DNA from: an uncultured Kiritimatiellota bacterium
GTDB lineage: Bacteria > Verrucomicrobiota > Kiritimatiellia > RFP12 > DVOR01
DNA: 64,000 nt
Reading direction: 5' to 3'
Assembly: GCA_944389565.1 (NCBI GenBank)
Contig: CALXMV010000001.1
Coordinates: 51,924 to 115,923 of the forward strand
Position 1 is the stretch's first letter; the number at the start of each line of letters is the position of its first letter. Under the pieces are notes generated by a model, which made no database searches, was not told the origin of the DNA, and saw nothing but the letters and a program-made list of their open reading frames with translations. Below, in pieces: positions 24,496-44,383 of this stretch. The position numbers and the translations under genes were made by a program.

Positions 24496-24689
24496 GACAA
24501 ATCCTTTCGTTGTTTATGGGCATTCATCGGCGCGACAACACTAAACTAACATGTTTCACGCACGGCCGCACGAAAAATAGGGTGAAGCGGGGCGCCTTCC
24601 GCTTGGTTCGCCCCGTTGCCGGCACCTCCTCCTTCCGACCGTGCGGGTGCGCCGAAGGCGCCCGGTTTGCAGGGGGCGTGCGCGTTTTG

Positions 24690-24695
24690 TATACT
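24690..24695 (+). promoter_or_regulatory. Candidate -10 element (TTG-TATACT) upstream of the FGE-domain gene
   Basis: gcgcgttttgTATACTcatgc lies 27 nt upstream of the ATG at 24722, with a ggagga RBS. This is a weak call. Confidence 0.3.
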
Positions 24696-24721
24696 CATGC
24701 GCAATCCTGGAGGACCATGAG

Positions 24722-27409
24722 ATGAAGCGACTCTTGGCTTTGTTGGCGTCCCTGACCGTCGTGGCCACCGCCTCGGCGGAGCGGGAGTACATCGTCTACG
24801 ACCTGACGGCCCGTGAGGCGACGGCGGTCGAGAACCCCGACCCGAAGGACAAACGGTACCATGAGGGGACGGAGATGCTCTTCGTCCGCGACACCGCCGT
24901 CGGCGAGGCCTTCTACATCGGCGTCTGGGAGGTGACGTGCGCCCAGGCCGTCCACCTGGGGTGGGCCACGGCCAATGCGGGCGTGGGGCAGGCGTACGTC
25001 ACGCGGGGCGACGCCGCCACCTACGACTTCGCCCAGAACCATTCGCTCTCCGGTTTCACGGGGCTGAGCCTGCCGACCTTGGGGCAATGGAAGGCCTACG
25101 CGGAGGACGTCCAGCCGCAAGACTCGGTGAACGTGTTTCGCGGAAACTACAATTACGGGATTCGGACCATCGCGGAGTGGTACGGCAAGTACCAGGCGGA
25201 CGTCGAGCCCAACGCCTTTGGCGTCTACGACATCTTCGGCAACGCGGCGGAGTACGCCTCCACCGACGGCCTCTTCCACGGCGGCTACGCGCAGAGCTCG
25301 TGCGACTACTCCGACTCCCACGACGCCGTCGCGTACGCGGGGAAGACGGCCTCGGCCCTTTCCGCCCTCGGCGATTTCCTCGGTGCGCGGCTTGTCTACA
25401 CGCCGCCGGCGGAGCGCACCTACACCGTGACGGTCACGCTTGACGGCGAGCCCGTGGCGGGGTGGGACGCCTCGCACGGCTACAAGGCCGGCGAGCGGGT
25501 GACGCTCCCCGAGCCGACCCTCGCGGCCTTCCACCGCCTCGCCGAGCCGACCGTCACGCCCGAGGGGCTCGAGATCGACGCGGATCGCTCCTTCCTCATG
25601 CCGGCGGAGGATGTCACGGTCGCCTACGCGTCCGTCCCTTACGCCATCGTCCAGGCCGTCGACGCCACCGTCTCCGACCCCACGCCTGCCGCGGGGGCGA
25701 CCGTCACCCTCACCGCCGCCGCCTCGGAGCCGTGGCGCACCCTCGCCGGCTGGGAGGCCTCCGAGGGCGCCACCGCCCCCGAGGGCGCGCCCGCCACCTT
25801 CGAGTTCCGAATCCCCGAGACGATCCAAGGCGGCGAGACGTACACCTTCACCGCCCGCTTCGTCACCGCCCCACGCGTCCTGGTCTACGGCGGCACCGTC
25901 GCGGTCGGTGAGGGCGAGGATCTCGGCGACGGCTTCTACTCCGTCGGCGCGGCACTCACCCTCACCGCCCCGGCCACCCTCAATGGCGGCGAGTACCGTT
26001 TCGAGGCCTGGGTCGACGCCACCGGCGAGCCGATCCCCACCCGTGCCACCTGCCAGGTCACCGCCGGCGCCAACGGCACCGTCGCCACCTACGCCGCCAC
26101 CTATGCCCTCGACGAGGAGGGCGTCCAGGGTGCCGTCATCGACATCGCCTCCACGACGGACGAGGAGGGCGCCCCCGCCGCCTGGCCGCTCTTCGGCTCC
26201 CTGCCCGACGAACGGCAGACCTCCGTGCCCGACCCTTACGGCAACACCTATCGCCATTTTTCCTATCACGATGCCGGCCCGCTCGCCAGCTTCTCCCTCG
26301 ACGATGGCACCCTGACCTATCCCGAGGCGGCCTCCGAGGGCGGCGTCCCCACCGTCGACACCACCGACGAGGGGCTGACCCGGAAACTCCAACTCCGCCG
26401 CGTGGCGCCCGCCGAGGGCAAGGACTTCTACCTCGCCGTCCATGAGGTGACCATCGGCCAAATGGCGCGTGCCTACAAGCGCACCGGCACCACGCTGCAC
26501 TATGATTCCGGCGATGCCTGCGTCGCCTGCACCGCCAATGAGTTCTACCTGCCGGGCTATGAGGATCCATGGCCCACCAAGGTCACGGCGACGATCGCCA
26601 AGGCATTGGGGCGCGACTTCCGCCAGCCCACCAAGGCGGAGATCCGCGCCATCGGCGATTCGGCGCGCGAGACCAACGCGAACGCCGGCCTCGGCGCCGA
26701 GCGCGATGAGGAGATCACGCGGAAGATGGTCGTCTGCCATCCCTCCGCCATCGCCAAACCCGCCTCGAGGGAGGCGGATCCCTACGGTTTCTACGACCTC
26801 TGGGGCAATGGCTATGAGTACGCCGGCGATGGCACCGTCTTCGGCGGCTGTTACGGGAGCCAGTTCGGCGAATGCAATCTCGACACGGTCTTTAATCATC
26901 CCTCCAACACGCTTCTTGCCGCGCGGCCGTTGCTGGAGGTGGAGACGCCCGTGACGCTTCGCTTGGAGGATGAGGACGGGCGGACGCTCCAGGGCATCGC
27001 CGGCAAGCGCCTCTTCCCCGAGGGCGTGGCCACGCCCGAACGCGCGGGCCATGCCTTCGCCGGCTGGACGCTCGGCGGCGAGGCCATCCCCCTCGATCAC
27101 GTGCTCCGGGCCGAGGACGACGGCAAGGTCCTCGCCGCCACCTGGACGCCAAACGCCACGGCCATCAAGGTCATCTACCACGACGGCCTCTCCGGCCCGG
27201 AGACCGTCTATCCCGGCATGGCCACCCGCATCTACGCCCCCGCGGGCAAGACCATCGCCACCCTCACCGTCCGGGGCACCGAGAGCGCCGTGTGGGACCC
27301 CGAGACCCAGACCCTCACCATCCCCGCCGACGCCCCCGACACCCTCACGGTCAACGCCACCTTCGCCGAGCCCGCCCCCACGCCCGGCTTCCGCCTCATC
27401 CTGCGCTGA
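24722..27409 (+). CDS. Secreted protein with two formylglycine-generating-enzyme (FGE/SUMF1)-like domains and Listeria-Bacteroides-repeat-like beta domains
   Basis: It has the signal peptide MKRLLALLASLTVVATASA. Domain 1 is FYIGVWEVTCAQA...FGVYDIFGNAAEYA and domain 2 is KDFYLAVHEVTIGQMARAY...YGFYDLWGNGYEYAGDG, both with the FGE-sulfatase fold pattern. HAFAGWTLGGEAIPLDHVL is a Flg_new-like repeat. The listed ORF start at 24641 (GTG) is probably upstream of the true start. Confidence 0.65.
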   Translation: MKRLLALLASLTVVATASAEREYIVYDLTAREATAVENPDPKDKRYHEGTEMLFVRDTAVGEAFYIGVWEVTCAQAVHLGWATANAGVGQAYVTRGDAATYDFAQNHSLSGFTGLSLPTLGQWKAYAEDVQPQDSVNVFRGNYNYGIRTIAEWYGKYQADVEPNAFGVYDIFGNAAEYASTDGLFHGGYAQSSCDYSDSHDAVAYAGKTASALSALGDFLGARLVYTPPAERTYTVTVTLDGEPVAGWDASHGYKAGERVTLPEPTLAAFHRLAEPTVTPEGLEIDADRSFLMPAEDVTVAYASVPYAIVQAVDATVSDPTPAAGATVTLTAAASEPWRTLAGWEASEGATAPEGAPATFEFRIPETIQGGETYTFTARFVTAPRVLVYGGTVAVGEGEDLGDGFYSVGAALTLTAPATLNGGEYRFEAWVDATGEPIPTRATCQVTAGANGTVATYAATYALDEEGVQGAVIDIASTTDEEGAPAAWPLFGSLPDERQTSVPDPYGNTYRHFSYHDAGPLASFSLDDGTLTYPEAASEGGVPTVDTTDEGLTRKLQLRRVAPAEGKDFYLAVHEVTIGQMARAYKRTGTTLHYDSGDACVACTANEFYLPGYEDPWPTKVTATIAKALGRDFRQPTKAEIRAIGDSARETNANAGLGAERDEEITRKMVVCHPSAIAKPASREADPYGFYDLWGNGYEYAGDGTVFGGCYGSQFGECNLDTVFNHPSNTLLAARPLLEVETPVTLRLEDEDGRTLQGIAGKRLFPEGVATPERAGHAFAGWTLGGEAIPLDHVLRAEDDGKVLAATWTPNATAIKVIYHDGLSGPETVYPGMATRIYAPAGKTIATLTVRGTESAVWDPETQTLTIPADAPDTLTVNATFAEPAPTPGFRLILR

Positions 27410-27573: not shown

Positions 27574-27582
27574 ATGCGGGAT

Positions 27583-27593
27583 TGTGGTATCAT
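27583..27593 (+). promoter_or_regulatory. Extended -10 promoter element TTGTGGTATCAT placed about 7 nt upstream of the ATG at 27601 (predicts a leaderless mRNA for the giant gene)
   Basis: gggaTTGTGGTATCATgcatggcATGAGACTG is seen directly. The same element occurs in front of nusA, gpmI and the VWA gene. Confidence 0.5.
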
Positions 27594-27600
27594 GCATGGC

Positions 27601-30600
27601 ATGAGACTGTGGCGCACGGGTCGGTTGCTGACGTGGGCGATGGCGTTTGCCGTCGTGGGCGGCGCGCGCGGCGTTGGGTTGGCGCCGGGGGTGTGCCCGA
27701 CGAATCTGACTTGGGCGGTGGAGGCCTATGCGGGGGCGGATTGGGGCGCCTGGGAGGCGCGTGTGGCCGCGGACGCGGAGGGGCTGGCGGCGGTGGCACG
27801 CGAGATCCCACCCACGCCGCCGGGGATGGTGACCTACATCGAGCAAACGGCCGAGGAGTTGCCGGAGGCGTTGGCGGCGTGCACGAACGCGGCGCCAAGC
27901 GTGTTGGTGGGGGGCGTCCGGGCGTGGGATTTCCGGGTGGCGGAGCGGGTGGCCGCGGATGGCGCGCGGGCGTTTCTGACGTTTGCGGGGGAGACGGTCT
28001 TCCATGCGCAGGGGGTGCCGGCCGACTTCGACGCGGAGGCATGGGCGTTGGCGGCCTACACGGAGGATGGGCGCCTGCCGGAGACGGTGGCCGGCGACGC
28101 GGCGCGGCGGGAGGAGTGGTTCGCCATGCGGGGGCGGGAACGGCTGGGCCTGGCGTATACCTTCGTGGAGCGGGGGCGGCTGGAGGATTACGTGGCGGCG
28201 CGCGAGGCGGAGGCCGCGGCGCGTGAGGAGGCCTGGGAGGAGGAGGGCGCGGCGGGGGCGTGGGGCTTCGGGGTGCGGGAGATGGAGGTGGGCGCCGGGG
28301 AGATGGCGTTCGGCTTCTGCGACCCGGCGGGGTCGGATCTGTACGTGTTGGGGCGGAAGAGCCTGGAGGCGTGGGACGATTGGGCGCTCATCGGCAAAGT
28401 CGAGGCGGAGGGGCGGCGATGGGTGGCCTTCGGGTTGCCGATGGACATGCATTTCTGGAAGTTCCTGGATGCCTCGCTGGACAGCGACGGGGACGGCATC
28501 GCGGACGGTCTGGAGGTGGGGTGGTTCGGGACGGACCCCCTGCGGGCGGACACGGCCGGAAGCCTGATCGACGACTGGCGGAAAATCTACGTGTATGGCA
28601 TGGACGCGCGGGTGGCGGACACCGACGGGGACGGTCTGCCGGATGGCTGGGAGCTGCTGAACGGCCTCGACCCTTACGCGGCGGACGCGGAGGGGGACCC
28701 TGACGGGGACGGGATCGCCAACCGTCTGGAATTGGCCTATGGGACCGACCCGCAACGGGCGGATTCGGACGGGGACGGTTTGGGCGACCGTGAGGAGACG
28801 GGGTGGGCGGAGGTGACCCATGGCGTGGGGCCGGTGGCGGCGGGCACGGGGCGTGTCGCGCTCGCGGAGGGCGTGGCGGTGGGCCTGCCCTCCCAAATGC
28901 GTCTGGGCGGCCGCGCCTACGCGCGCGTCGAGGCCTCGCGGTCGGGCGTGGTGCGGCTGCTCGGCGAGTTCCCGATCGCCATCCGGGTCTTCCCGGAGGG
29001 GATGGCGTGGCCGGAGGCGTTCCGCGCGGGAATCTTCGCGTGGGAGGCGGAGGAGGGTTTCGTCATCGCCTTCGAGAACGTCGGTCTGCCGGGGGAGCCC
29101 GCGACGACGCTGGGGCGCGCGCAGGTCATCCTTCGGGCGGATTCCGGGGGCGTGGAGGTGCGCTACACGACCCTGCAGGGTGGCCTCGCCGCGCTCACGG
29201 GGGTCGGCGCGAGGCGGCCGGACGGCCGTTTTGGCGAACTGCTCGACCCCGGCACGGTGACCTTGGGCGATTGCGTGACCTACCGCTTCGGCGCGGGCTC
29301 CGACCCGACGCTCCCGGACACCGACGGCGACGGGGTGGAGGATGGCGCGGAGGTCGCGGCGGGCCGGTCGGCCCCAGGCCCGGACGACGACTTCGACGGT
29401 CTGCCCGATCGGTGGGAGCGGCGCTTCGGCCTTGACCCCCTCTCCGCCTCGGGCGCGGATGGCGCGGCGGGCGACCCCGACGGCGACGGGCTCCCGAACC
29501 TGCGCGAGCACGCCCTGGGCACCGACCCGACCGCCGTGGATTCCGACGGCGACGGGCTGGGCGACGCCGCGGAGGTGGGCGCCGTCACGCGCCGCACGCA
29601 CGTCGCCCCCATGGATACCTCCGCGGGGCGGGTGGTGGCGGTCTATGACAGGGAGGCCACCGCCGGCTATGTGTTTTTCGACCTGCCCTTCCCCGTGCGG
29701 GTGGGCGGGGCGGACTATCCGCGCGTGGGGCTCAACATCGACGGCGTGCTCACGTTCGTGCCAGCCGGCGAGACCGCGGTGCGCTTCCCCTCGGCACGGC
29801 GGGCGTTGGGCGAGACGCCCCTGGACACGCGTTACCCCTCCCTCGCGCTCTACTGGGCGGATCTGATGGTGGCGGAGGCCTTCCGCTCGGAACTGCGCGT
29901 CGTGGAGATGCCGGGCGAGACGGTCGTCGTCGAGTGCCTGAACTTGGCCAAGCAGGGCGGTTTCGCCTTCCTGGCCTGGCCGGAGCCCGCGACCTCTTTG
30001 GCGCGTATCCAGGTCATCATCCCGCGCGACGCGGACGCCGCCGGCATCGAGGTGCGCTACACGACCCTGCAGGGCGGTTTCGACGGCGCTGAGGCCACCC
30101 TCGGGGCGCAGTTCGGCACGCAGGCGATCGACCTGGCGCACAATCTGCTCGGCGCCGTCGCCATCGGCGACGCCATCACCTACCACCCCGGCACCGGCAC
30201 GGATCCCGCACGCGCCGACACCGACGGCGACGGGTTGGGCGACGCCGCCGAGTTGCGGCTGGGCCTCGACCCGAAGAACCCGGACCTGGATGGCGACGGC
30301 TTGGCGGATGGCTGGGAGGTCGCCTGGGGGCTTGACCCGCACGTGCCCGATGACCATGCCGCCGATTGGGACGGCGACGGCATCTCCAATTACGTGGAGG
30401 CCCAGTGGGGCACGAACCCGCGCGCGGCGGATTCCGATGGCGACGGCGTCGGCGACGCGGCCGAGATCGCGCAGGGGAGCGACCCCGCCGACGCCTCGGA
30501 CGGGGGCATGGCGGGGCGTTACGTCAAGGTCGCCCTCACGTTCGGCGACCCCAGCGCGAGCGCCTCCGAGAAATACGCCGTCGAGGTGTGCCAGACCGTG

Positions 30601-32682
30601 GGCGAGGGCAGCGGGGAGGCCGCGCCCAAGCGCCTGGAGAACCTGATCTCCGACGGCGCGGAGACGCGCGAGCTCCTCCTCCGCCCCGACGCGGCCTACA
30701 CGGTGACGCTCCGGCACCTCTCCTCGAAGGCCGCGGAGGCCGACCACGACTACACGCTCACCGTCCGCTGCCCGGTCGTCGCCGCGGGCACGCAGGTCGT
30801 CATCGAGGATCCGGAGTCCCTGCTCGGCACGTATGCCACGGGCGGCTCCGCCACGCCCGACACCTACACGGGCAAGGCCGTCACGCTCTATTGCCTCACG
30901 CCGACCCTGACCCCGGATCATGACCGCGACCTCACGTTCGGCCCCATCGACGAGGCGTACGTCGCGGCGGGCACCCCCCTGCCGGTGTGGGTCAATTCGG
31001 ATCATGACCATGAGGACCCCGAGGGCGTCAACGACGGTTCGGAGGCCTCGCAACCCCTGCCCGACAACTTCATTGAGGGGATCCTTTCAGGCGCCTTCGA
31101 TTGCGACGACCTAACCGTGAACGGGCAGTCCGACCTGGAGGACTTCTTCCCCGTGCGCCTGCGGTTGGGCGCGGCGCTGACGGCTTTCCTGGCGGCACAC
31201 CCGCAGGCCACCGCGCACTTGGAGACCGGCCCATGGGAGGGGGCGCTGCACGCGTTGTGGTGCCATGACGGCACGGAATCCGTCCAACGCTTCTTCGACG
31301 CGTCCGCGGGTGGCGGCCGCTACGGCGAGGAAGGGCGGGAGGCCCGTTGGGAGGCGGAGGTCGCCGAGCTGACGGACGGGCTGTTCGGGGACAGGACGCG
31401 CATCCCCCCGCAGGTGCTCGCCACCGCCCAGGCCTCGGAGCGCGGCGACGTGCCGCTCTTCGTCGAGGCGTGCGCCGAGGGCACGCTGACGCTCCGCCTG
31501 CGCGTGCGGGAGGAGTCGGTGGAGGCGCTGGGCGAGGAGGGGAGGATCCTGACGGAATGCGCCTTCGACAGCCGTTTCGTCGAGGCGTGCTATGCCGTGC
31601 TGAATCTGCGCGAGGACACGCCGCAACGTGTCGACCCCGCCGTCGAACGCGCTGAAAAGCCCGACGTGACCGTCTGCCTCGTGCATGGGTACAACGTCTC
31701 GGAGACCGACGCGGCCGAGTGGTTCAACGCCGTCTACAAGCGCCTCTGGCGCTCCGGCTCGACAGCCCGCTTCTGCGGCGTCGTCTGGCGCGGCGACGAC
31801 CAAGGCGTCATCCTGCCGGATTACTATCGGAACGTCGCGAACGCCTTCGATGCCGCGGGGGCGTTCGCCACGGCGCTGGATGCGATCCCCGGGCGCAAGG
31901 TCGTCCTGGCGCACAGCCTCGGCAATATGCTCGTCTCCGCCGCGCTGCAGGATCACGACGCCCCCATCGACGCCTACTTCATGCTCAATTCCGCCGTCCC
32001 CGCCGAAGCCTACGACCCCGCACCGTCCTCCCCGGGCTTCTCCGTCGCCGGCGTCCCCGCCGGCCTCATCCACGATGCGTGGCGCAACTATGACCCCAGG
32101 AGTTGGTCCGCGCTCTGGCATCGGCATTTCCTCCCGCATGAGGGCTTCGCGCCGACCGCCGCCGACGCCGCCCGCGCCACCCTCACCTGGAAGGGCCGCT
32201 TCGAGGACGTGCTCACCGGCCGGGGCGCGAAGGTCTTCCACGTCTACTCGCGCGGCGCGGGCGAGACGAGCGGCGACGAGGTCTTCGAGCTCCTGGGCAC
32301 GACCCCCTCCCCGCTGAGCGGTTTCGACTGGACCGACCTCAAGACCAAAGGCCGTCACGCGTGGCAGAAGCAGGAATGCTGGAAAGGCCGCCGCGAGGCA
32401 AGCGCCCTCGCCCTCGCGGCCTCCGAGGAGATGGGATGGGGCTTCGATGGTGCCGCCGCCGACGTCTCCGCGGAAGCCTCCGCCTCGTTGGGCGAGGCCG
32501 CCTACCGCCAAGCACCCCTCTTCTGCCGCCAGCCCCCCGAAATCCTCGGCGACGACCCCAACGCCATCCTCGACCTCCGCAACACCCTCCTCGCCCGCGC
32601 CATCCCCGCACTCTCCAACGCCGCCGGAAAAACGGATCTTCCAGGCCTTGCTGAGGGCGATCAATTCGACTGTCAAACCTAG
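27601..32682 (+). CDS. Giant secreted Ca-binding protein with multiple thrombospondin type-3-like (DxDxDGxxDxxE) repeats, two ~280-aa repeated modules, and a C-terminal alpha/beta-hydrolase (lipase/esterase-like) domain
   Basis: It has the signal peptide MRLWRTGRLLTWAMAFAVVGGARG. TSP3-like repeats include DTDGDGLPDGWE, DPDGDGIANRLE and DSDGDGLGD. The module ...IQVI(L/I)...GIEVRYTTLQGG occurs twice. The C-terminus has VCLVHGY (oxyanion HG) and VVLAHSLGNML (GxSxG nucleophile elbow). The start could alternatively be 27592 or 27574. Confidence 0.75.
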   Translation: MRLWRTGRLLTWAMAFAVVGGARGVGLAPGVCPTNLTWAVEAYAGADWGAWEARVAADAEGLAAVAREIPPTPPGMVTYIEQTAEELPEALAACTNAAPSVLVGGVRAWDFRVAERVAADGARAFLTFAGETVFHAQGVPADFDAEAWALAAYTEDGRLPETVAGDAARREEWFAMRGRERLGLAYTFVERGRLEDYVAAREAEAAAREEAWEEEGAAGAWGFGVREMEVGAGEMAFGFCDPAGSDLYVLGRKSLEAWDDWALIGKVEAEGRRWVAFGLPMDMHFWKFLDASLDSDGDGIADGLEVGWFGTDPLRADTAGSLIDDWRKIYVYGMDARVADTDGDGLPDGWELLNGLDPYAADAEGDPDGDGIANRLELAYGTDPQRADSDGDGLGDREETGWAEVTHGVGPVAAGTGRVALAEGVAVGLPSQMRLGGRAYARVEASRSGVVRLLGEFPIAIRVFPEGMAWPEAFRAGIFAWEAEEGFVIAFENVGLPGEPATTLGRAQVILRADSGGVEVRYTTLQGGLAALTGVGARRPDGRFGELLDPGTVTLGDCVTYRFGAGSDPTLPDTDGDGVEDGAEVAAGRSAPGPDDDFDGLPDRWERRFGLDPLSASGADGAAGDPDGDGLPNLREHALGTDPTAVDSDGDGLGDAAEVGAVTRRTHVAPMDTSAGRVVAVYDREATAGYVFFDLPFPVRVGGADYPRVGLNIDGVLTFVPAGETAVRFPSARRALGETPLDTRYPSLALYWADLMVAEAFRSELRVVEMPGETVVVECLNLAKQGGFAFLAWPEPATSLARIQVIIPRDADAAGIEVRYTTLQGGFDGAEATLGAQFGTQAIDLAHNLLGAVAIGDAITYHPGTGTDPARADTDGDGLGDAAELRLGLDPKNPDLDGDGLADGWEVAWGLDPHVPDDHAADWDGDGISNYVEAQWGTNPRAADSDGDGVGDAAEIAQGSDPADASDGGMAGRYVKVALTFGDPSASASEKYAVEVCQTVGEGSGEAAPKRLENLISDGAETRELLLRPDAAYTVTLRHLSSKAAEADHDYTLTVRCPVVAAGTQVVIEDPESLLGTYATGGSATPDTYTGKAVTLYCLTPTLTPDHDRDLTFGPIDEAYVAAGTPLPVWVNSDHDHEDPEGVNDGSEASQPLPDNFIEGILSGAFDCDDLTVNGQSDLEDFFPVRLRLGAALTAFLAAHPQATAHLETGPWEGALHALWCHDGTESVQRFFDASAGGGRYGEEGREARWEAEVAELTDGLFGDRTRIPPQVLATAQASERGDVPLFVEACAEGTLTLRLRVREESVEALGEEGRILTECAFDSRFVEACYAVLNLREDTPQRVDPAVERAEKPDVTVCLVHGYNVSETDAAEWFNAVYKRLWRSGSTARFCGVVWRGDDQGVILPDYYRNVANAFDAAGAFATALDAIPGRKVVLAHSLGNMLVSAALQDHDAPIDAYFMLNSAVPAEAYDPAPSSPGFSVAGVPAGLIHDAWRNYDPRSWSALWHRHFLPHEGFAPTAADAARATLTWKGRFEDVLTGRGAKVFHVYSRGAGETSGDEVFELLGTTPSPLSGFDWTDLKTKGRHAWQKQECWKGRREASALALAASEEMGWGFDGAAADVSAEASASLGEAAYRQAPLFCRQPPEILGDDPNAILDLRNTLLARAIPALSNAAGKTDLPGLAEGDQFDCQT

Positions 32683-32822
32683 ATTGTGAATGATGCGAAG
32701 CGTCCGTGGGTTCAGCGTTCAGGAGAGTTGAAAGAGCGATGGCTACATTCAGATGTGAAGGATGTGGCTTATCCATTAACGCTCCCACTTTTTCAGTTCA
32801 TGATTCAGAAAGGAAAGTTGAA

Positions 32823-33941
32823 ATGAGAATGTTTGTGGCTTGCCTCTCGCTGTCGGTAGCCGTGGTACTTTACGCGGAGACGCCTTATGAGCGTAATGAA
32901 CGTTATCAAGGTGCGCAGGCAACCCTTCAATTGACCGTTCGGGATGACCGAGGGGAGCCCGTTGAGGATGCTCGTGTGGAGGCTTCTTTTTGGAACCCGT
33001 TTCAGAATCCGACACGTGTGCAAATTGGCCATACCGATGATGCCGGGACAGTCTCTTTTACGGGAGAGGGTTACTCGGACACGCATTATTATGTTGGAAA
33101 AGATGGATATTATGGAAGTCGCGGAAGGGCGGTGCTCGAAAAACCTGACAAGGACCCCGAGCATTTTTGGGAACGGCTCAGGTGGGAGCCGGTGATTCGT
33201 GACATTACGCTCAAGAAAAAGCGGAATCCCATCGAAGGATTCTTGCATATAGGCATCGAACTCAAAACACCGGCGCTCAATCGTCCCGTGTGGTTTGACC
33301 TTGAGGCCTTCGATTGGTTGCCTCCTTATGGCGAGGGGGTTCACCGTGATGTCGCCATAACCTTGCAGACCGCACGCGTGCAAATAAGGGGGTATGAAGC
33401 CGACAGAATCGCCAAGGCGTGTTTTGCTTTTCCCAATCCGCATGATGGCGCACAGCGTTGCGATGCGGATATCCAATCCTATCACGAAGTGGGATATCAT
33501 GTGAATACGGCCAAGCCATTCGTCAACCCCATGATTCTTGAGGCAGATTTTACGAGAAGTCACGACAAATTTCTTCCTTACACAAGCTATCTGACATTTC
33601 GTGTCAGAAGCAAATGCGATGAGAATGGGAACCTCGTCTCCGCACAGTATGGCTTCATGTATCGCTTTTCGGTTACGGAGGAATGCTTCACAGCCTCTCT
33701 GCTTTTCCTCAATCCCACGCCGAATGACACGAACATCGAATACGATCTCAAGCGGAGCCTGGCGAAATCGGATGCCGATCGCAAGTGGGAGGCTAGGCAG
33801 AAATGTCTTGAGAAACGGTTTGAGGAGGAGCGGAAAATGCTGGAGGAGATGGGTGTGGAGAACTTCATCAGGGCGATACGGGCGAAACGGAGCGGCGCTT
33901 CCGGCACGCCCAAGCAGGAAGCGAAGGGAGCGGCGGAATGA
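32823..33941 (+). CDS. Secreted paralog 1 of a three-member tandem family (signal peptide, N-terminal transthyretin/CarbopepD_reg-like beta-sandwich, variable middle, conserved charged C-terminal tail)
   Basis: It starts MRMFVACLSLSVAVVLYA/ETPY and carries an aaaggaaag RBS. It is low in GC (about 50-55%). The N-terminal ~150 aa are identical to paralog 3 and the C-terminal ~70 aa are shared by all three. Confidence 0.7.
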   Translation: MRMFVACLSLSVAVVLYAETPYERNERYQGAQATLQLTVRDDRGEPVEDARVEASFWNPFQNPTRVQIGHTDDAGTVSFTGEGYSDTHYYVGKDGYYGSRGRAVLEKPDKDPEHFWERLRWEPVIRDITLKKKRNPIEGFLHIGIELKTPALNRPVWFDLEAFDWLPPYGEGVHRDVAITLQTARVQIRGYEADRIAKACFAFPNPHDGAQRCDADIQSYHEVGYHVNTAKPFVNPMILEADFTRSHDKFLPYTSYLTFRVRSKCDENGNLVSAQYGFMYRFSVTEECFTASLLFLNPTPNDTNIEYDLKRSLAKSDADRKWEARQKCLEKRFEEERKMLEEMGVENFIRAIRAKRSGASGTPKQEAKGAAE

Positions 33942-35035
33942 GAACGTTTGTGGCTTGCCTCTCGCTGTCGGTGGCCGTTTCCCTTTACGCGGAGACGCCT
34001 TATGAGCGTAATGAACGTTATCAAGGTGCGCAGGCAACCCTCCAGCTGACGGTGCGTGACGACCGAGGGGTGCCAGTGGAAGGGGCCTATGTGCAAGCGC
34101 ATTTTTGGCAGCCGACCTCGGATGCGGCCGCTGTAGGCGCATACACCGACGAAAAAGGGTACGCGAACGTCGTGGGTAATGGGTATACAGATGTCCGATA
34201 TTCTGTGAGCAAAGATGGGTATTACAGGACTCGCGGGAGTGCGCGATTGTCGCTTCCCGAAAATGATCCAACGCCTTTTTGGAAAGATTATCAGTGGGCA
34301 CCCATCATAAGAGAAACCGTGATTAGGAAAGTCCGCCGCCCGGTCTCTGGGGTGCTTCATCTTGGCGAATGGCTGTCGCCTCCCCAGACAGATGTGCCTA
34401 TCGGGTTGGATTTGCAACTTATGGATTGGATGCCGCCCCACGGTCGGGGAAGCCATTGTGATGTCGTGGTCAAGTTTGTGACGCGGACACTGCGTGACAA
34501 TGGGCACGCATGGGAGGTTGTCGATTCAATCGCATTGGAGTTCCCTAATGAGCACGATGGTGTTTTGCTTTGTGATGCGGCACCCTATTCGGCATTCATC
34601 ACTCCCTATCATGTTCCTGAGAACGGAGATTTCGTGGCGTGTTACAGACTGACAGCATCGGAGAAGGAGGGAACCTTTTTTCTGCCAGATACGCAAACAC
34701 TCCTTTTCCGGATTCGGAGCAAAGAGGGTGCAGGCGGTGCAATCGTCTCTGCTCATTATGGCTCAATTTTTCGTTGTGTCATGACGGGTGGAATGGTTTC
34801 CATGGATGTTTTCCTCAATCCCACGCCGAATGACACGAACATCGAATACGACCCCAAGCGGAGTCTGGCGAAGTCGTATGCCGACCGCAGGTGGGAGGCC
34901 ACGCAGAAGCGTCTTGAGGAGGAGCGGAAAATGCTTGAGGAGATGGGCGTGGAGAACTTCATCAGGGCGGTGCGGGCGAAACGGAGCGGCGCTTCCGGCA
35001 CGCCCAAGCAGGAAGCGAAGGGAGCGGCGCAATGA
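33938..35035 (+). CDS. Secreted paralog 2 of the tandem family (divergent after residue ~45, conserved C-terminal tail)
   Basis: It starts MRTFVACLSLSVAVSLYAETPYERNERYQGAQATLQLTVRDDRG and ends ...FLNPTPNDTNIEYDPKRSLAKSYADRRWEATQKRLEEERKMLEEMGVENFIRAVRAKRSGASGTPKQEAKGAAQ. Its start has an ATGA overlap with paralog 1. Confidence 0.7.
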   Translation: MRTFVACLSLSVAVSLYAETPYERNERYQGAQATLQLTVRDDRGVPVEGAYVQAHFWQPTSDAAAVGAYTDEKGYANVVGNGYTDVRYSVSKDGYYRTRGSARLSLPENDPTPFWKDYQWAPIIRETVIRKVRRPVSGVLHLGEWLSPPQTDVPIGLDLQLMDWMPPHGRGSHCDVVVKFVTRTLRDNGHAWEVVDSIALEFPNEHDGVLLCDAAPYSAFITPYHVPENGDFVACYRLTASEKEGTFFLPDTQTLLFRIRSKEGAGGAIVSAHYGSIFRCVMTGGMVSMDVFLNPTPNDTNIEYDPKRSLAKSYADRRWEATQKRLEEERKMLEEMGVENFIRAVRAKRSGASGTPKQEAKGAAQ

Positions 35036-36138
35036 GAACGTTTGTGGCTTGCCTCTCGCTGTCGGTAGCAGTGTCCCTTTACGCGGAGACGCCTTATGAG
35101 CGTAATGAACGCTATCAAGGCGCGCAGGCGACCCTGCAATTGACCGTTCGGGATGACCGAGGGGAGCCCGTTGAGGATGCTCGTGTGGAGGCTTCTTTTT
35201 GGAACCCGTTTCAGAATCCGACACGTGTGCAAATTGGCCATACCGATGATGCCGGGACAGTCTCTTTTACGGGAGAGGGTTACTCGGACACGCATTATTA
35301 TGTTGGAAAAGATGGATATTATGGAAGTCGCGGAAGGGCGGTGCTCGAAAAACCTGACAAGGACCCCGTGCATTTTTGGGAACGGCTCAGGTGGGAGCCG
35401 GTAATCCGTGATGTCACGCTCAAAAAAATACGACACCCAATATCAGGGTTTTTGCATCACAATATTCCACTCACACCTCCTTGTCTCAATCAACCAATAG
35501 GATTGGATTTTGAGCGTTGGGACTGGTTGCCGCCTTATGGGATGGGGAAGCATGAAGATGTCAAAATCACGTTCGAGGCACAACGCGTCGTCCAACCCAA
35601 CTTTTCTAAAGACTTGGTTATTGCCATCCATTTCGCGTTTCCCAATCCAAATGATGGTATGCAAATCTGCCCTGCGGATACTTTTTCAACTTTCGTTCCC
35701 ACTTATCACGTTGATGCCCAAAAACCATTTATGAATACTGTTTCTTTTTATCGGCAAAAACCTTCAGAACAATATCAGTTTCTGGCTCACACCTCTTATC
35801 TGGCTTTTCGGGTTCGTAGTCAGAAAGGTGATGCGGGGATGTTCGTGGCGCATTATGGATTTATATATCAACTTCTTGATATCTCAGATCAAGAGTTTTG
35901 CCCGACTATTGTCTTTTTCAATCCCACGCCGAATGACACGAACATCGAATACGACCCCAAGCGGAGTCTGGCGAAGTCGTATGCCGACCGCAGGTGGGAG
36001 GCCACGCAGAAGCGTCTTGAGGAGGAGCGGAAAATGCTGGAGGAGATCGGCGTGGAGAACTTCATCAGGGCGATACGGGCGAAACGGAGCGGCGCTTCCG
36101 GCACGCCCAAGCAGGAAGCGAAGGGAGCGGCGGAATGA
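35032..36138 (+). CDS. Secreted paralog 3 of the tandem family (N-terminus identical to paralog 1, unique very low-GC middle, conserved C-terminal tail)
   Basis: It has ATGA overlaps with paralog 2 upstream and with the small protein downstream. The middle region is about 43-48% GC. Confidence 0.7.
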   Translation: MRTFVACLSLSVAVSLYAETPYERNERYQGAQATLQLTVRDDRGEPVEDARVEASFWNPFQNPTRVQIGHTDDAGTVSFTGEGYSDTHYYVGKDGYYGSRGRAVLEKPDKDPVHFWERLRWEPVIRDVTLKKIRHPISGFLHHNIPLTPPCLNQPIGLDFERWDWLPPYGMGKHEDVKITFEAQRVVQPNFSKDLVIAIHFAFPNPNDGMQICPADTFSTFVPTYHVDAQKPFMNTVSFYRQKPSEQYQFLAHTSYLAFRVRSQKGDAGMFVAHYGFIYQLLDISDQEFCPTIVFFNPTPNDTNIEYDPKRSLAKSYADRRWEATQKRLEEERKMLEEIGVENFIRAIRAKRSGASGTPKQEAKGAAE

Positions 36139-36650
36139 GGGCGATGTTGGTTTTTGCCATGATGTTGGGGGTGGCGTGGTGCGCGTGGGGCGGGCTCGTG
36201 CCACGATTGCTGATCTTGGAGGCGGCGAGCGTGAAGGGGCAGGACCCGACGGCCCCGTGGACCGTTTACGGGACGTACCCGGCGGGGACGGTGGTGACGG
36301 GGAGCAAGCATTGCGAGGGGGCGGAGGGGACGGTCTGGAAGTTCGGCGTGTATGACTATCTGGGGATCACGCAGAACGTGACCTTCGCGTTGCGCTTCAA
36401 GGGGATGGATTGGACGGGGGAGGTGGGGAGCGCCAAGGTGGAGGGGATCTTCCGCCCGTACACGGACGGGGCCGTGACGTGCACGCTCGCGACGGTCTAT
36501 CAGGTGCGGGACGCCTTCTCGGCGCCCGACCGCGCGCCGACCTCCTATCCCGACGCGGCGATCCTGGAATGGAAGTTCCTCATTTTCTGGGAATGGGAGG
36601 GCGAGCCCGATGGCTCGTCGGGCGCGCTTTCGCCGGTTTCCGAAAAATAG
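36135..36650 (+). CDS. Small secreted protein of unknown function, high GC, translationally coupled to the paralog array
   Basis: It starts MRAMLVFAMMLGVAWCAWGG (signal peptide) and is 171 aa. Its ATGA overlaps the stop codon of paralog 3. Confidence 0.55.
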   Translation: MRAMLVFAMMLGVAWCAWGGLVPRLLILEAASVKGQDPTAPWTVYGTYPAGTVVTGSKHCEGAEGTVWKFGVYDYLGITQNVTFALRFKGMDWTGEVGSAKVEGIFRPYTDGAVTCTLATVYQVRDAFSAPDRAPTSYPDAAILEWKFLIFWEWEGEPDGSSGALSPVSEK

Positions 36651-41438: not shown

Positions 41439-42981
41439 GACGCGTCCGCCGCGGGAGGCTGCCCTGCCCCTGCTCCTGGTCGCCCTGCCGCTGGCCGTGG
41501 CCGTGGCCCGCACGCCGGCGCTCGTGGGGATGGTCTGCGCGGCCGCGTTGCTCCTGGCCTTCCGGGCGGGGTGCCTCAGGGCCTTCGCGGCGATTGTGGC
41601 GGGGGGCTTCCTGCTCAATCTGCTCGTCCCCTCCGGTTTCGCGATCTACAGCGACGCGGACAATTACCTGATCCCGAACATCCGTCTGCTGGCCGCGGGC
41701 GGGGCGTTGGCGATGGATGGCGCGGTCTCGGCCGCGCATTTCACCCTGCCGCAGGGGTTCGTGGGGTGGGGCGCGGCGCTCTATCGGCTCACGGGCTGGG
41801 TGGACGCGGGGAACTGCCTGGTCTTCCTGCTGCTGCCTGCCACGTGGCTGACCCTGCGCCGGACGCTGACGCGTGCGCAGACGGCGCTGCTGGCCGTGGG
41901 GCCGCTCACGTTCGTGAGCCTCTTCTGCGCCCTGCCGGATGGGTGCGTCTACCTGCTGCTCCTCACCGCCCTCTTCGCCCACCGCGCGGGGGACTTCCGC
42001 CTGTCGGTGGTGGCGCTGGTGGTGGCCTGCACGTTCAAGACGACCGCGTGGCTGCCGGCCGCGTTCGTCGGGTTGCTGTTGCTGCGCGATTGGCCGCGGC
42101 GGTGGGGGTGGCTGGCACTGGCCGCGGCGGTGACGGGGGCGATCGTCTTCCCGACGTTGCGGGCGTTGGCGGGCGGCTCGCTCTCCGCCATCTCCGCGGA
42201 TTTCCTGGGGATGGACGCCGCCGCCCGCGAGATGGGCTACTGGCCGCGCCTGGCCTATGCCTATCTGGGCCATTGGCTCGTGCCCGGCGACCCGCGCTTC
42301 AACGTCGCGACGGGGGGCATCGACGGCGGGGGCGTGGACGGGCTCGGACCGGTCTTCCGCCTGGCCGTTTGGGCGTCGCTGGCCGTGTTGACGCTCTGCC
42401 GGCGGCGGTTGACGGGGTGGGGGGGCACGTTGCTCGCGGCGTGGGGGAGCGTGCTGGCGATGCCCACGCTCTACATCGGTTACGCCCGCTATGCGCCCCT
42501 GCTCTACGTGGCGGTGATGCTGCCCTTGGTCCTGACGGTGCGCCGGACGGCCGTGCTCGTGGCGGTGCTGGTCTGCGCCATGCCGGCGGCGTGGGTGGGC
42601 TGGCGCCTGATGCTCGCCTCCGAGAACCTCACCGCGCAACGGCACGCCGAGGCCGTCCGGAGCGACCTCTACAACGTCCGTTGCGCCTTCCGCGGCCGGC
42701 TCGTGGCGGAGCCGCAGCCCACGCTCGCGGGCAACCTGTCCTACACCTATCGCGGCACGGACTTCCCGCCCATGCCGCGCACGCTGGCCGTCGACAACCG
42801 GCTGACCCCCGCCTCCGACAAGGCGCGCGGCATGGCGGCCTACGCCTTGGGCACGTGGCTGCCCTGGGCCTGCCGCCACCTGCCCACGCTCGCCGCGGAC
42901 TGGGCCGCCTATCGCTTTGACACGTTCATGACCTTTCCGCGAGGAACGCATGATGGACTTCCGCCCCCTGCACGCCAATGA
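41419..42981 (+). CDS. Polytopic membrane protein, possible GT-C-fold glycosyltransferase-like
   Basis: It has multiple predicted TM helices, an acidic motif in the first loop (YSDADNYLIP) and a periplasmic C-terminal domain. The family was not recognised with confidence. Confidence 0.4.
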   Translation: MADTSAETRPPREAALPLLLVALPLAVAVARTPALVGMVCAAALLLAFRAGCLRAFAAIVAGGFLLNLLVPSGFAIYSDADNYLIPNIRLLAAGGALAMDGAVSAAHFTLPQGFVGWGAALYRLTGWVDAGNCLVFLLLPATWLTLRRTLTRAQTALLAVGPLTFVSLFCALPDGCVYLLLLTALFAHRAGDFRLSVVALVVACTFKTTAWLPAAFVGLLLLRDWPRRWGWLALAAAVTGAIVFPTLRALAGGSLSAISADFLGMDAAAREMGYWPRLAYAYLGHWLVPGDPRFNVATGGIDGGGVDGLGPVFRLAVWASLAVLTLCRRRLTGWGGTLLAAWGSVLAMPTLYIGYARYAPLLYVAVMLPLVLTVRRTAVLVAVLVCAMPAAWVGWRLMLASENLTAQRHAEAVRSDLYNVRCAFRGRLVAEPQPTLAGNLSYTYRGTDFPPMPRTLAVDNRLTPASDKARGMAAYALGTWLPWACRHLPTLAADWAAYRFDTFMTFPRGTHDGLPPPARQ

Positions 42982-44383
42982 GTTGCCCGCGCTCCGCCCG
43001 TACGTCGCGCGCAACCCCTTTCATCTCAGCGACAATTCCCTGGGCTTCCTGCTCATGTGGCGCCCCTACGCCCACACCGCGATGGCCGAGGCCGAGGGGT
43101 GCCTCATCGTCCGCACCTCCTATGGCGGCAAACTGCGCTTCGCCTATCCCATCCATCCCGAGGCCGACCAGGAGGCCGAGCTGCGCGCGCTCACGGCGGT
43201 CGAGGCCTGGTGCGTCGCCGAGGGGGTGCCCCTGGGGCTCTGCTCCGTGCCGATCGAGCGCCTCCCCCTCCTCACGCGCCGCTACGGCCGCGACATGACC
43301 ATCACCAATCCCCGCACCTGGCGCGACTACCTCTACAACCTCTCCGACTTCGAGGCCTACGCCGGGCGCCGTTTCGCCGGCCAGCGCAACCACGTCTCCA
43401 AGTTCCGCCGGGCCTACCCCGACGCCGCCTACCGCGCCATGACCCCCGGCGACCTCCCCGCCATCCGCGACTTCCTGCGCGCGTACGCCGAGCGCCAATA
43501 CGCCAAGAACTCCTTCCTGGCCAAGGAGGAACTCCACGGCACCGAGACGCTCCTGAGCATGTTCGAGCCCCTCCGCCTCGAAGGCGGCCTCATCGAGCAC
43601 CAGGGCAGGATCATCGCCATCACCGTCGGCGAGCCCATCGGCGACACCCTCATGGTGCACGTCGAGAAGGCGCTCGTCGGCTACGACGGCGTCTATCCCA
43701 CCATCGCCCAGGCCTTCGCCGCCGCCATCCGCCCCGCCCACCCCGAATTGCTCTACGTCAACCGCGAGGACGACGCCGGCGACTGCGGCCTGCGCAAATC
43801 CAAACTCCAATACAACCCCATCCGCCTCCTCGACAAATACACCGTCCTGCCCCGGCGCGTCATCGAGGAGCTCGACGCCCCGCCCACCATCGACACCGAG
43901 CGCCTGCGCCTGCGCCCCGTCCCAGACGCCGACGTCCACGTCTACGCCCGCCTCGCCCGCGACCTCGCGCGCAACCGCTTCTGGGGGTGGGACTGGCGCA
44001 CCGCCTGGGAGGGCGAGGGCGACCCGCGCGACGCCTGGTTCCTCGAACTGCCGCGCAACGACTTCAAGGCCCGCCGCGAGGTCGCCCTCGGCATCTATGC
44101 CGCGGACGCGCTCGTCGGCGAATGCGTCTTCCACAACTTCACCTACGACAACACCGTCGAGCTCGGCGTCCGCCTCCTGCCCGAGGCCGAGCACAACGGC
44201 TACGCCGCCGAGGCCATGCGCGCCATGGCCGCCCACGCCCTGTGCTACTGGGGGCTGGAGAAGGCCGTCGCCAAGTGCTACCGCGACAACCTCCCCTCCC
44301 GCCGGATGCTCCTGGCCTCCGGCCTCCGCGACGACCACGAGGACGACACCTTCTTCTACTTCTCCCGCACCGCCAAAAACTGA
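42950..44383 (+). CDS. Fusion of a DUF2156 (aminoacyl-phosphatidylglycerol-synthase-like) domain and a C-terminal GNAT acetyltransferase
   Basis: The N-terminus (HLSDNSLGFLLMWRPYAHTAMAEAEGCLIVRT...) resembles the DUF2156 / MprF C-terminal domain pattern. The C-terminus (ERLRLRPV...FHNFTYDNTVELGVRLLPEAEHNGYAAEAMRAM) is RimJ/RimL-like GNAT. Confidence 0.5.
   Translation: MMDFRPLHANELPALRPYVARNPFHLSDNSLGFLLMWRPYAHTAMAEAEGCLIVRTSYGGKLRFAYPIHPEADQEAELRALTAVEAWCVAEGVPLGLCSVPIERLPLLTRRYGRDMTITNPRTWRDYLYNLSDFEAYAGRRFAGQRNHVSKFRRAYPDAAYRAMTPGDLPAIRDFLRAYAERQYAKNSFLAKEELHGTETLLSMFEPLRLEGGLIEHQGRIIAITVGEPIGDTLMVHVEKALVGYDGVYPTIAQAFAAAIRPAHPELLYVNREDDAGDCGLRKSKLQYNPIRLLDKYTVLPRRVIEELDAPPTIDTERLRLRPVPDADVHVYARLARDLARNRFWGWDWRTAWEGEGDPRDAWFLELPRNDFKARREVALGIYAADALVGECVFHNFTYDNTVELGVRLLPEAEHNGYAAEAMRAMAAHALCYWGLEKAVAKCYRDNLPSRRMLLASGLRDDHEDDTFFYFSRTAKN

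Follow-up and report, generated by a model that had tools for sequence, protein, structure and literature searches.

The pairing of polymorphic toxins with cognate immunity proteins is an established concept, which already includes forms exported by a Sec signal alone and forms with an α/β-hydrolase head (PMC3482391). The survey that recognized the signal-peptide-only class, under the label "T2SS" (type II secretion system), lists Lentisphaerae and Verrucomicrobia among its hosts, and it describes α/β-hydrolase domains that serve as C-terminal toxin heads, with immunity partners of the SUKH, Imm66, and Imm69 families, whose folds are alpha+beta or largely alpha (Zhang et al. 2012, PMC3482391). 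Here we analyze a stretch of 64,000 nucleotides (the window) from an uncultured Kiritimatiellota bacterium (contig CALXMV010000001.1, positions 51,924 to 115,923), in which the gene of a giant secreted protein ending in an α/β-hydrolase domain is followed by three tandem genes of one family, p1, p2, and p3, whose products we call partners. Judging from sequence comparisons, we think it rather probable that the locus encodes a polymorphic hydrolase toxin, exported by Sec, together with secreted proteins that confer cognate immunity, a system that has no name so far. It has in common with the hydrolase toxins of Zhang et al. (2012) the hydrolase head, the Sec-only export class, and hosts from the Planctomycetes-Verrucomicrobia-Chlamydiae (PVC) group. 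The partner, however, is a secreted protein of two beta-sandwich domains and has no profile match to SUKH, Imm66, Imm69, or the other known immunity families in Pfam. A first-pass annotation of this DNA had suggested that the export route may be novel, a suggestion we do not retain because Sec-only polymorphic toxins are already a recognized class (PMC3482391). What is new is the hydrolase and partner families themselves, how abundant they are in PVC gut bacteria, and that only the His-bearing tip of one fold is swapped, at a fixed junction. Literature searches that covered Kiritimatiellae toxins, DUF900 toxins, and Tox-ABhydrolase returned no description of the hydrolase or partner family, nor was a description of toxin systems in Kiritimatiellae or Lentisphaerae found.

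Orphan cdiA-CT/cdiI and rhs-CT/rhsI modules (CT, C-terminal) have been described for the contact-dependent inhibition (CDI) and Rhs systems (Poole et al. 2011, PMC3150448). Our locus resembles these systems in its conserved exported body, in a polymorphic C-terminus behind a conserved motif, and in the cognate gene immediately 3' of it. Orphan modules of a C-terminal fragment plus a partner, homologous to the main gene, are a further likeness, as are cassettes of lower G+C content that are exchanged between strains. Unlike in CDI and Rhs there is no CdiB, and Pfam and NCBIfam scans of the giant protein left the TPS domain, FHA repeats, the VENN motif, YD repeats, and the PxxxxDPxGL motif unmatched. 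In addition, what is swapped is no whole toxin domain of varied fold but just the final ~55 residues of one conserved enzyme fold, including the presumed catalytic His. CdiI and RhsI are cytoplasmic, whereas the partner here bears a signal peptide.

Phospholipase effectors Tle1-5 of type VI secretion systems (T6SS) reportedly have periplasmic Tli immunity proteins. The likeness to our locus lies in the GxSxG serine hydrolase and in the adjacent secreted or periplasmic immunity genes, often tandem paralogs. In Enterobacter cloacae the immunity protein of a Tle/Tli pair also activates its lipase (bioRxiv 10.1101/2023.03.28.534661; PMC10294624). Unlike Tle effectors, the giant has a Sec signal of its own and no Tle-family domain, its partner matches no Pfam family, and no T6SS genes were found among the neighbors scanned, in agreement with the earlier statement that Hcp, VgrG, and PAAR signatures are missing. 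In the colicin E DNases and their Im proteins, one conserved enzyme fold varies within a restricted segment that sets specificity, and the cognate inhibitors vary along with it, which is the pattern that our locus recalls. Colicins are plasmid-borne, SOS-induced, and released by lysis, their immunity proteins are cytoplasmic, and they lack orphan arrays at a chromosomal giant gene. In the LipA/Lif and Serratia PhlA/PhlB-type pairs, a hydrolase gene precedes a coupled gene for an accessory protein, which acts on the enzyme within the cell envelope. Lif is single-copy, membrane-anchored, and all-helical, whereas the partner here is a beta-sandwich protein that has several copies and alleles and is also found where the enzyme is absent.

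The Giant Protein and Its Hydrolase Domain

The giant gene is an interrupted open reading frame (ORF) of 1702 codons (27574..32682; this and all other features of the locus are on the + strand). Its likely start is Met 27601, from which the product counts 1693 residues, with the signal-peptide-like segment MRLWRTGRLLTWAMAFAVVGG after it. The signal peptide is followed by TSP3 repeats alternating with domains of ~200 residues, by a pre-hydrolase region, and by the C-terminal α/β-hydrolase. In the TSP3-type Ca-binding region (28480..30447), 12 DxDxDG motifs form three clusters and Pfam recognizes nine TSP3_bac repeats (E 2e-38); apart from these TSP3-type matches, Pfam and NCBIfam scans of the protein gave a weak match to Abhydrolase_1 and nothing else. 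The ORF, the Pfam matches, and the motif positions agree with the first-pass description of a 1,693-residue protein with a signal peptide, TSP3-like repeats, and a C-terminal hydrolase. The giant is a large exported protein with a conserved N-terminus, a repeat body, and a C-terminal enzymatic head. In the closest other species found, represented by an uncultured Lentisphaeraceae metagenome-assembled genome (MAG), the giant is 46% identical over its full length.

The hydrolase core (31576..32634) contains the oxyanion HG within VCLVHGY (31672-31692), the nucleophile elbow AHSLG (31909-31923), both motifs having been named in the first-pass annotation, and a candidate acid in the GDE motif at a conserved position (32269-32289). 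It ends in the motif IPALSNAAGKT (32602-32634), which we call the junction motif. In alignments of 17 and 57 sequences the HG and the Ser of AHSLG are invariant and the Asp of GDE is near-invariant. The His of a C-terminal RWLHSDxK motif (H390) is invariant across the 57-sequence alignment, and a terminal helix follows the motif. The structure model used for the domain is that of homolog P0031, standing in for the window copy; the strand order and the conserved residues fit a Ser after β5, an Asp after β7, and a C-terminal His. With the fold, elbow, HG, acid, and His in canonical order, the family belongs to the α/β-hydrolase superfamily and has a candidate catalytic triad.

More than 200 homologs of the hydrolase domain were found, mostly signal-peptide proteins of ~390 residues from Kiritimatiellae or Lentisphaerae; some are the C-termini of other large proteins. 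The search against lipase families that had been proposed for this domain returned generic matches: in Pfam scans of 57 members, weak matches were obtained to Abhydrolase_6 (46/57), DUF900 (40/57), and PGAP1 (15/57), none fell in the Tle1-3 families, and DUF2235, DUF3274, and Lipase_3 remained unmatched. A PDB sequence search with the hydrolase profile gave best matches at E of only about 0.5-0.8.

Three loci contain ORFs after a partner gene that bear a divergent hydrolase-like piece, GIPAESFAAGANP, matching hidden Markov model (HMM) positions 191-226 only (L064 5731-6294 and 8931-9341; L077 8934-10190; L075 1683-2531). From their sequence these pieces may represent a second hydrolase subfamily, like one in L061 (GDGIPATSFAAGANP).

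The pre-hydrolase region of the giant (residues ~1100-1335, 30870-31575) is a segment of ~200 residues with the pattern DLEDFFPV ... LPL..xPVEQMY..NLR, in which DLEDFFPV starts at 31132. It is kept in other giants and in mid-size homologs of 500-700 residues. The region had no Pfam match, and a PDB sequence search of 30451-31578 returned no matches. It could be a candidate pre-toxin or translocation module.

A Stop Codon Separates the Giant ORF from Its Conserved Tail

The giant ORF is cut by an in-frame TAG (32680..32682) that precedes the conserved C-terminal tail. The 140 bp that follow (32683-32822) had been taken for a spacer with a ribosome-binding site. Translated in the giant frame past the TAG, they read IVNDAKRPWVQRSGELKERWLHSDVKDVAYPLTLPLFQFMIQKGKLK up to a stop codon, and this sequence lines up with the conserved C-terminal end of all homologous hydrolases; the supposed spacer is the in-frame end of the enzyme. 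This variable tail (32683..32826) consists of a remnant of a hypervariable loop, the RWLHSD motif with the family-invariant His (codon 32746-32748), and the terminal helix. The TGA that ends it overlaps the ATG of p1.

Because the conserved tail lies past the TAG, the giant ORF as written ends before the invariant His, and the complete Ser-Asp-His triad, on which the first-pass annotation had staked its hydrolase proposal, is not encoded by the window copy. The TAG sits 22 codons ahead of the presumed catalytic His and 46 nucleotides past the junction, in unique sequence. In three contigs of the same species, L001, L086, and L088, the giant reads through this site, where TCA is aligned in L001 and TTT in L086, to give products of 1739-1749 residues, and is coupled to the first partner gene by GTGA or ATGA. 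Since TAG terminates only 2 of the 39 window genes, its recoding is neither supported nor excluded. The TAG is therefore a nonsense codon or a sequencing error, and the window locus may be an immunity-only remnant unless the TAG is such an error.

Three Mosaic Partner Genes

The three partner genes and a 171-residue ORF behind them are chained by ATGA overlaps, as the first-pass annotation had stated for its four signal-peptide ORFs. Partner p1 (32823..33941, 372 residues) is of the type that we call C and has 89.6% nucleotide identity to the third partner gene of L001. Partner p2 (33938..35035, 365 residues) is of type B, with a middle nearly identical to that of L001 B. Partner p3 (35032..36138, 368 residues) is a chimera, in which the N-terminal domain is that of p1 and the middle is of type A (90.9% nucleotide identity to the first L001 partner). 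In p1, a signal peptide precedes a transthyretin-like domain and a second, variable beta-sandwich, after which come an NPTPNDTN motif and a helical tail; the predicted structure of the partner comprises two soluble beta-sandwich domains.

In the DNA alignment, columns 121-360 show 98-100% identity between p1 and p3, columns 901-1020 show 100% between p2 and p3, and the extreme 3' ends of all three genes share 92-100%. The near-identical ends noticed earlier are thus real, and the genes are mosaic. The middles, which had been called completely different, are diverged homologs with 30-63% DNA identity and many invariant columns. The mosaicism and the gene order are far beyond chance, and the same family and order recur in dozens of genomes. 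Variation is concentrated in the second domain, both among the window paralogs and in swapped alleles elsewhere (for example L053 vs L069); the NPTPNDTN hairpin after this domain is the most conserved element of the partner. The G+C content at third codon positions (GC3) of the paralogs is 0.52-0.59, against ~0.9 genome-wide.

The ratio of nonsynonymous to synonymous substitution rates (dN/dS) in partner genes is 0.10-0.37 (0.24 for p1 vs L001 C), and these genes are functional and under purifying selection. The middle of p2 is almost identical to that of B, while synonymous divergence (dS) of the p1/C and p3/A middles reaches 0.36-0.44, about ten times the 0.02-0.05 of the flanking genes. Because of this tenfold excess, the cassettes have a history separate from that of the chromosome.

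Pfam gave for the partner only sub-threshold matches of its N-terminal domain to Big_1, CarboxypepD_reg, YtkA, and DUF4198, and NCBIfam and PADLOC scans gave none, so that no housekeeping family, which would have spoken against an immunity role, appears among the matches, nor does a chaperone or defense family. A word-indexed search found 27 members of the partner family. In a profile search of 1.84 billion representatives, clustered at 50% identity, the family comprised 1246 clusters with E<1e-30, a number that rose to 2736 with E<1e-10, and lengths were about 310-350 residues.

Three identities were considered for the partner and rejected. A Lif-type foldase is ruled out by the model of two soluble beta-sandwiches, the lack of a Pfam foldase match, and the arrays of 1-5 copies; a CdiB/TPS partner or outer-membrane barrel is ruled out by the same two-domain soluble model. 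In partner homologs P0010-P0022, which lie outside the window lineage, the tail after NPTPNDTNLE is often Pro-rich and basic (...RQCEPPPPPRKKKRKSLWPF); partners of the window lineage have a charged helical tail of ~60 residues in its place.

Hydrolase and Partner Form a Conserved Pair

A scan for the NPTPNDTN motif in one genome per species, with a pattern derived from an 11-sequence alignment, yielded 76 loci; most are in MAGs of Kiritimatiellae, Lentisphaeraceae, and Verrucomicrobia from gut and rumen, and a single genome often has several. The loci were searched with HMMs of the hydrolase and partner families, and the 57 loci with at least 1.5 kb of upstream sequence were treated as informative. 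The first partner lies within 300 nucleotides of the end of a hydrolase-domain protein in 51 of the 57, a count that includes L005, added by hand as its matches overlap. At 81 junctions, the partner match mostly starts -9 to +30 nucleotides from the stop codon. All distant partners whose context was fetched likewise come directly after a protein that ends in the same hydrolase domain; the preceding enzymes include giants of 2345, 1527, and 1511 residues and a standalone enzyme of 395 residues from Hadza gut metagenomes.

The number of full partner genes in the 57 loci is one in 30, two in 15, three in 11, and five in one, and the order of partners differs, which is the variation at related loci that the first-pass annotation had proposed to look for. 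Eight loci (L010, L012, L024, L049, L057, L061, L064, and L070) contain orphan C-terminal fragments of the hydrolase, each with a partner of its own after it. The fragments start at HMM positions 165 to 358, run to the end, and keep the RW(L/C)HSD and KG(N/G)L(K/R) motifs; in L010 the main hydrolase gene is frameshifted. The window itself has orphan partner genes only, with no orphan tails. Lone partner genes with no hydrolase nearby occur in L021, L043, and L051.

One of these lone genes, in the gammaproteobacterial isolate Motiliproteus sp. SC1-56 (L021 7932-8900), encodes a signal peptide; no hydrolase was found in the ~8 kb upstream, and an ORF resembling an IS200/Y1-type transposase adjoins it. 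Restriction-modification genes adjoin the modules in three unrelated loci, namely an EcoRI-type methylase in L003 (9086-9952), MmeI in L006 (9208-12282), and a DNA methylase with BsaWI beside the hydrolase/partner module in L007 (3246-5908). These neighbors hint that the modules reside in variable or defense islands.

Tail and Partner Alleles Change Together at a Fixed Junction

In the window species, four contigs that come from different samples share 98-99% identity along the giant gene as far as position 32634, the end of ...IPALSNAAG(K/R)T. Past this junction (32634..32635) they carry three unrelated-looking tail alleles, one in the window, one in L001 and L002, and one in L086 and L088, and the G+C content falls from ~0.70 to ~0.50. 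The low-G+C island of the window extends from 32634 to about 36135. Each tail allele has a different first partner, A in L001, B' in L086, and C in the window, which fits a toxin/immunity reading. The full orders are C, B, and the chimera (C N-terminus plus A middle) in the window, A, B, C in L001, and B', C in L086 and L088. All three partner types are thus kept in the window and in L001, and only B' and C in L086 and L088.

The same break is seen in other genomes. The hydrolase cores of 12 pairs of related loci or cassettes share 85-100% identity, which drops to 16-70% at HMM columns 340-360 and is lower from there to the end, and the adjacent partners have about 50-65% identity overall. In L010 and L064 the orphan fragment is 100% identical to the main gene until ...GIPA(L/M)(T/A)xxxG and then diverges. 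The reverse pattern is found between L033 and L036, where similarity is higher in the tail (0.91) and the partner (0.92) than in the core (0.84). Mean GC3 is 0.68 for cores, 0.47 for tails, and 0.51 for partners, and in 47 of 50 loci it is lower in the partner than in the core. Close strains are polymorphic at the C-terminus from a conserved junction onward, in only ~55 residues of one fold, and the downstream gene travels with the C-terminal allele: the partner changes along with the tail, and the core stays conserved. The species-specific junction had no match when JGI metagenomes were scanned for its exact pattern.

In L086 (7912-10004) and L088 (3289-5460) both partners carry a frameshift or deletion precisely where NPTPNDTN meets IEYD, the point at which the identical 3' repeat starts, and the short contigs L089 and L090 start 25 nucleotides before the 171-residue gene. 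These irregularities probably reflect assembly collapse at repeats and call for caution with single-base features such as the TAG.

A Proposed Toxin with Exchangeable Tip and Immunity Array

Orphan modules, allele replacement at a junction, and low-G+C cassettes occur together in these loci, and this combination matches the architecture that defines polymorphic-toxin loci with orphan CT/immunity modules (Poole et al. 2011, PMC3150448; Zhang et al. 2012, PMC3482391). In the model that we propose, the giant Ca-binding surface or secreted protein would carry its C-terminal serine hydrolase, esterase- or lipase-like, as the toxic head. The last ~55 residues of the head would comprise a hypervariable loop of ~35 residues at HMM positions 336-372, the catalytic-His motif RWLHSD, and the terminal helix, and this tail, together with the translationally coupled downstream gene, would form an exchangeable cassette. 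The two-domain beta-sandwich proteins encoded downstream, presumably secreted to the periplasm, would act as cognate immunity proteins, and extra copies may be orphan immunity genes directed at the alleles of sister strains. Cassettes would be replaced by homologous recombination at the conserved GIPAL(S/T)xxxG, and gene conversion and shuffling may be driven by the identity of the partner genes at both their 5' and 3' ends. Domain 2 of the partner might recognize the hypervariable loop beside the catalytic His, with the conserved hairpin near the active site. In the window, the toxin gene would be disarmed or interrupted by the TAG while three intact partners (C, B, and A-like) are kept. The distribution across genomes, with several modules per genome, 1-5 partners per locus, and lone partners, appears arsenal-like. 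The first-pass proposal of an effector-immunity system gains from the conserved coupled pair, the orphan modules, the allele replacement, and the low G+C content; for the window effector itself, which is cut before its His, it does not hold as written.

If the model is correct, it would supply a function for two large families, one of partners, with at least 1246 clusters (50% identity, E<1e-30) and no Pfam or NCBIfam model, and one of hydrolases that are labeled only as generic Abhydrolase_6 or DUF900. It would point to antagonism between bacteria in Kiritimatiellae and Lentisphaerae, groups that live in the gut communities of humans, ruminants, and other hosts and are mostly uncultured. It would also offer a compact natural case of specificity switching, with a fixed junction just before a hypervariable loop by the catalytic His. 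Three tail alleles and three partner types within one species make cross-immunity directly testable. A bolder version, which we regard as possible but doubtful, is that gut and rumen PVC bacteria wage strain-level warfare with an undescribed toxin family. A hydrolase tip of ~55 residues would be swapped together with a new periplasmic class of two-beta-sandwich immunity proteins, on Sec-exported Ca-binding giants or small standalone enzymes, and delivery would proceed without the known type V, VI, or VII machineries.

Several observations weigh against the toxin model. Toxicity and its neutralization by family members, a periplasmic site of action, and a lipid or ester substrate are all inferred from sequence. 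No delivery machinery is evident, the neighbors scanned in the window being housekeeping genes, and the model leaves unexplained how a periplasm-acting enzyme would cross the outer membrane of the target. The variation is confined to the tip of one conserved enzyme fold, unlike the whole unrelated domains exchanged in classical polymorphic toxins. The hypervariable loop covaries weakly with partner domain 2, at a partial r of 0.25 when core identity is controlled (0.25-0.40 over the partial correlations, which are confounded by linkage and phylogeny), and there are clear exceptions such as L030/L048 and L035/L062. The polar motifs of the partner, PPYGxG...D, R.R, and NPTPNDTN, are strongly conserved at long distance, which would also fit an enzyme cofactor or binding subunit. 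Finally, the window effector is cut short and the system here may be inactive; the TAG could also be an error, as the repeats of the sister contigs show irregularities of the kind that assembly errors produce.

Alternative Explanations

The conserved polar motifs would also be expected if the pair were an enzyme with an obligate helper, a cofactor, an activator, or a chaperone for folding or secretion, whether colipase-like, Lif-like, or activating like Tli, and if the covariation of tail and partner reflected an interface only. Strict adjacency with ATGA or GTGA coupling, suggesting 1:1 stoichiometry, and purifying selection on the partner genes agree with such a helper, and the activating immunity protein of E. 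cloacae Tle/Tli (PMC10294624) provides a precedent. Yet a chaperone would not be expected in two to five copies per enzyme, beside a truncated enzyme, or alone as in L021, L043, and L051; orphan tail-plus-partner modules and strain-level allele replacement indicate diversification of the conflict type, and the partner is a beta-sandwich protein with no Pfam foldase match, not a helical Lif fold. We therefore consider a helper unlikely. It also seems quite unlikely that the hydrolase is a nutritional enzyme, a carbohydrate esterase or lipase used in foraging, with partners that serve as exchangeable specificity modules, like carbohydrate-binding modules (CBMs), and broaden its substrate range. 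The hosts are gut and rumen Kiritimatiellae and Lentisphaerae, the partner is built of beta-sandwich domains, and glycoside hydrolase genes lie close to several modules, but such genes are abundant throughout these genomes and their adjacency is weak evidence. Nor would foraging account for truncated orphan tails with intact His motifs, for replacement of alleles at one junction among strains that are 98-99% identical, or for low-G+C cassettes and partner genes without an enzyme, and the partner has no Pfam match to a CBM or esterase family.

The mosaic paralogs with identical ends, their recent conversion tracts, and the silent-looking tail fragments recall surface variation, in which tail and partners would be exposed antigens or phage receptors that change by gene conversion from silent cassettes, as in pilE/pilS; the restriction-modification genes next to modules in three unrelated loci, hinting at islands under phage pressure, point in the same direction. 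This we judge very unlikely, since the variable tail bears the invariant catalytic-His motif, the partners are full ORFs with signal peptides under purifying selection and not silent cassettes, and every orphan tail is paired with a partner gene, a toxin/immunity signature. That the stop codon, mosaics, and rearrangements are products of pseudogenization or of repeat mis-assembly is highly improbable. A TAG does interrupt the enzyme, the main gene of L010 is frameshifted, frameshifts in the L086 and L088 partners coincide exactly with repeat boundaries, and the array is interrupted by the ends of short contigs. However, all three paralogs of the window are intact and have dN/dS values of 0.1-0.37, the architecture recurs in about 75 independent loci from many assemblies, and the TAG lies in unique sequence and not on a repeat boundary. 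Each of these four explanations accounts for some features, but none accounts for orphan tail-plus-partner modules, lone partners, and strain-level replacement together.

The 171-Residue Gene and the Surroundings of the Locus

The secreted 171-residue protein encoded behind p3 (36135..36650) had been counted as a member of the cassette. Its gene is ATGA-coupled in the window, but it has a host-like GC3 of 0.89, and a weak homolog stands upstream of the giant gene in the Lentisphaeraceae MAG. In L001 a 20-nucleotide gap, not an overlap, separates it from the last partner, and its only relatives in databases are near-identical copies from the same species. It is a linked neighbor outside the exchangeable cassette.

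The window has ~70% G+C and a gene GC3 of around 0.9. Rfam and tRNA scans of the window gave no matches, and a promoter and terminator scan found nothing informative within the operon. The locus lies among housekeeping genes, with recA, an ABC ATPase, and guaA upstream and a prepilin-type N-methyl protein, asd, parB, and iPGM, among others, downstream. Just upstream of the giant gene, a protein of 922 residues (24641-27409, +) has no Pfam or PADLOC match; among the fetched loci scanned its homolog occurs only in L001, of the same species, and an 895-residue product is encoded at the same place in L086. Farther upstream, a 647-residue protein (12936-14882, -) with Peptidase_C10 (streptopain-like) and CarboxypepD_reg domains looks like a secreted cysteine protease. 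Two proteins encoded downstream have fused domains. One, of 477 residues (42950-44383, +), joins a lysyl-phosphatidylglycerol synthase C-terminal domain (LPG_synthase_C) to a GNAT acetyltransferase. The other, of 1324 residues (52981-56955, +), is an apolipoprotein N-acyltransferase (LNT_N plus CN_hydrolase) fused to a long TPR/YfiO-like C-terminal region, an unusual architecture.

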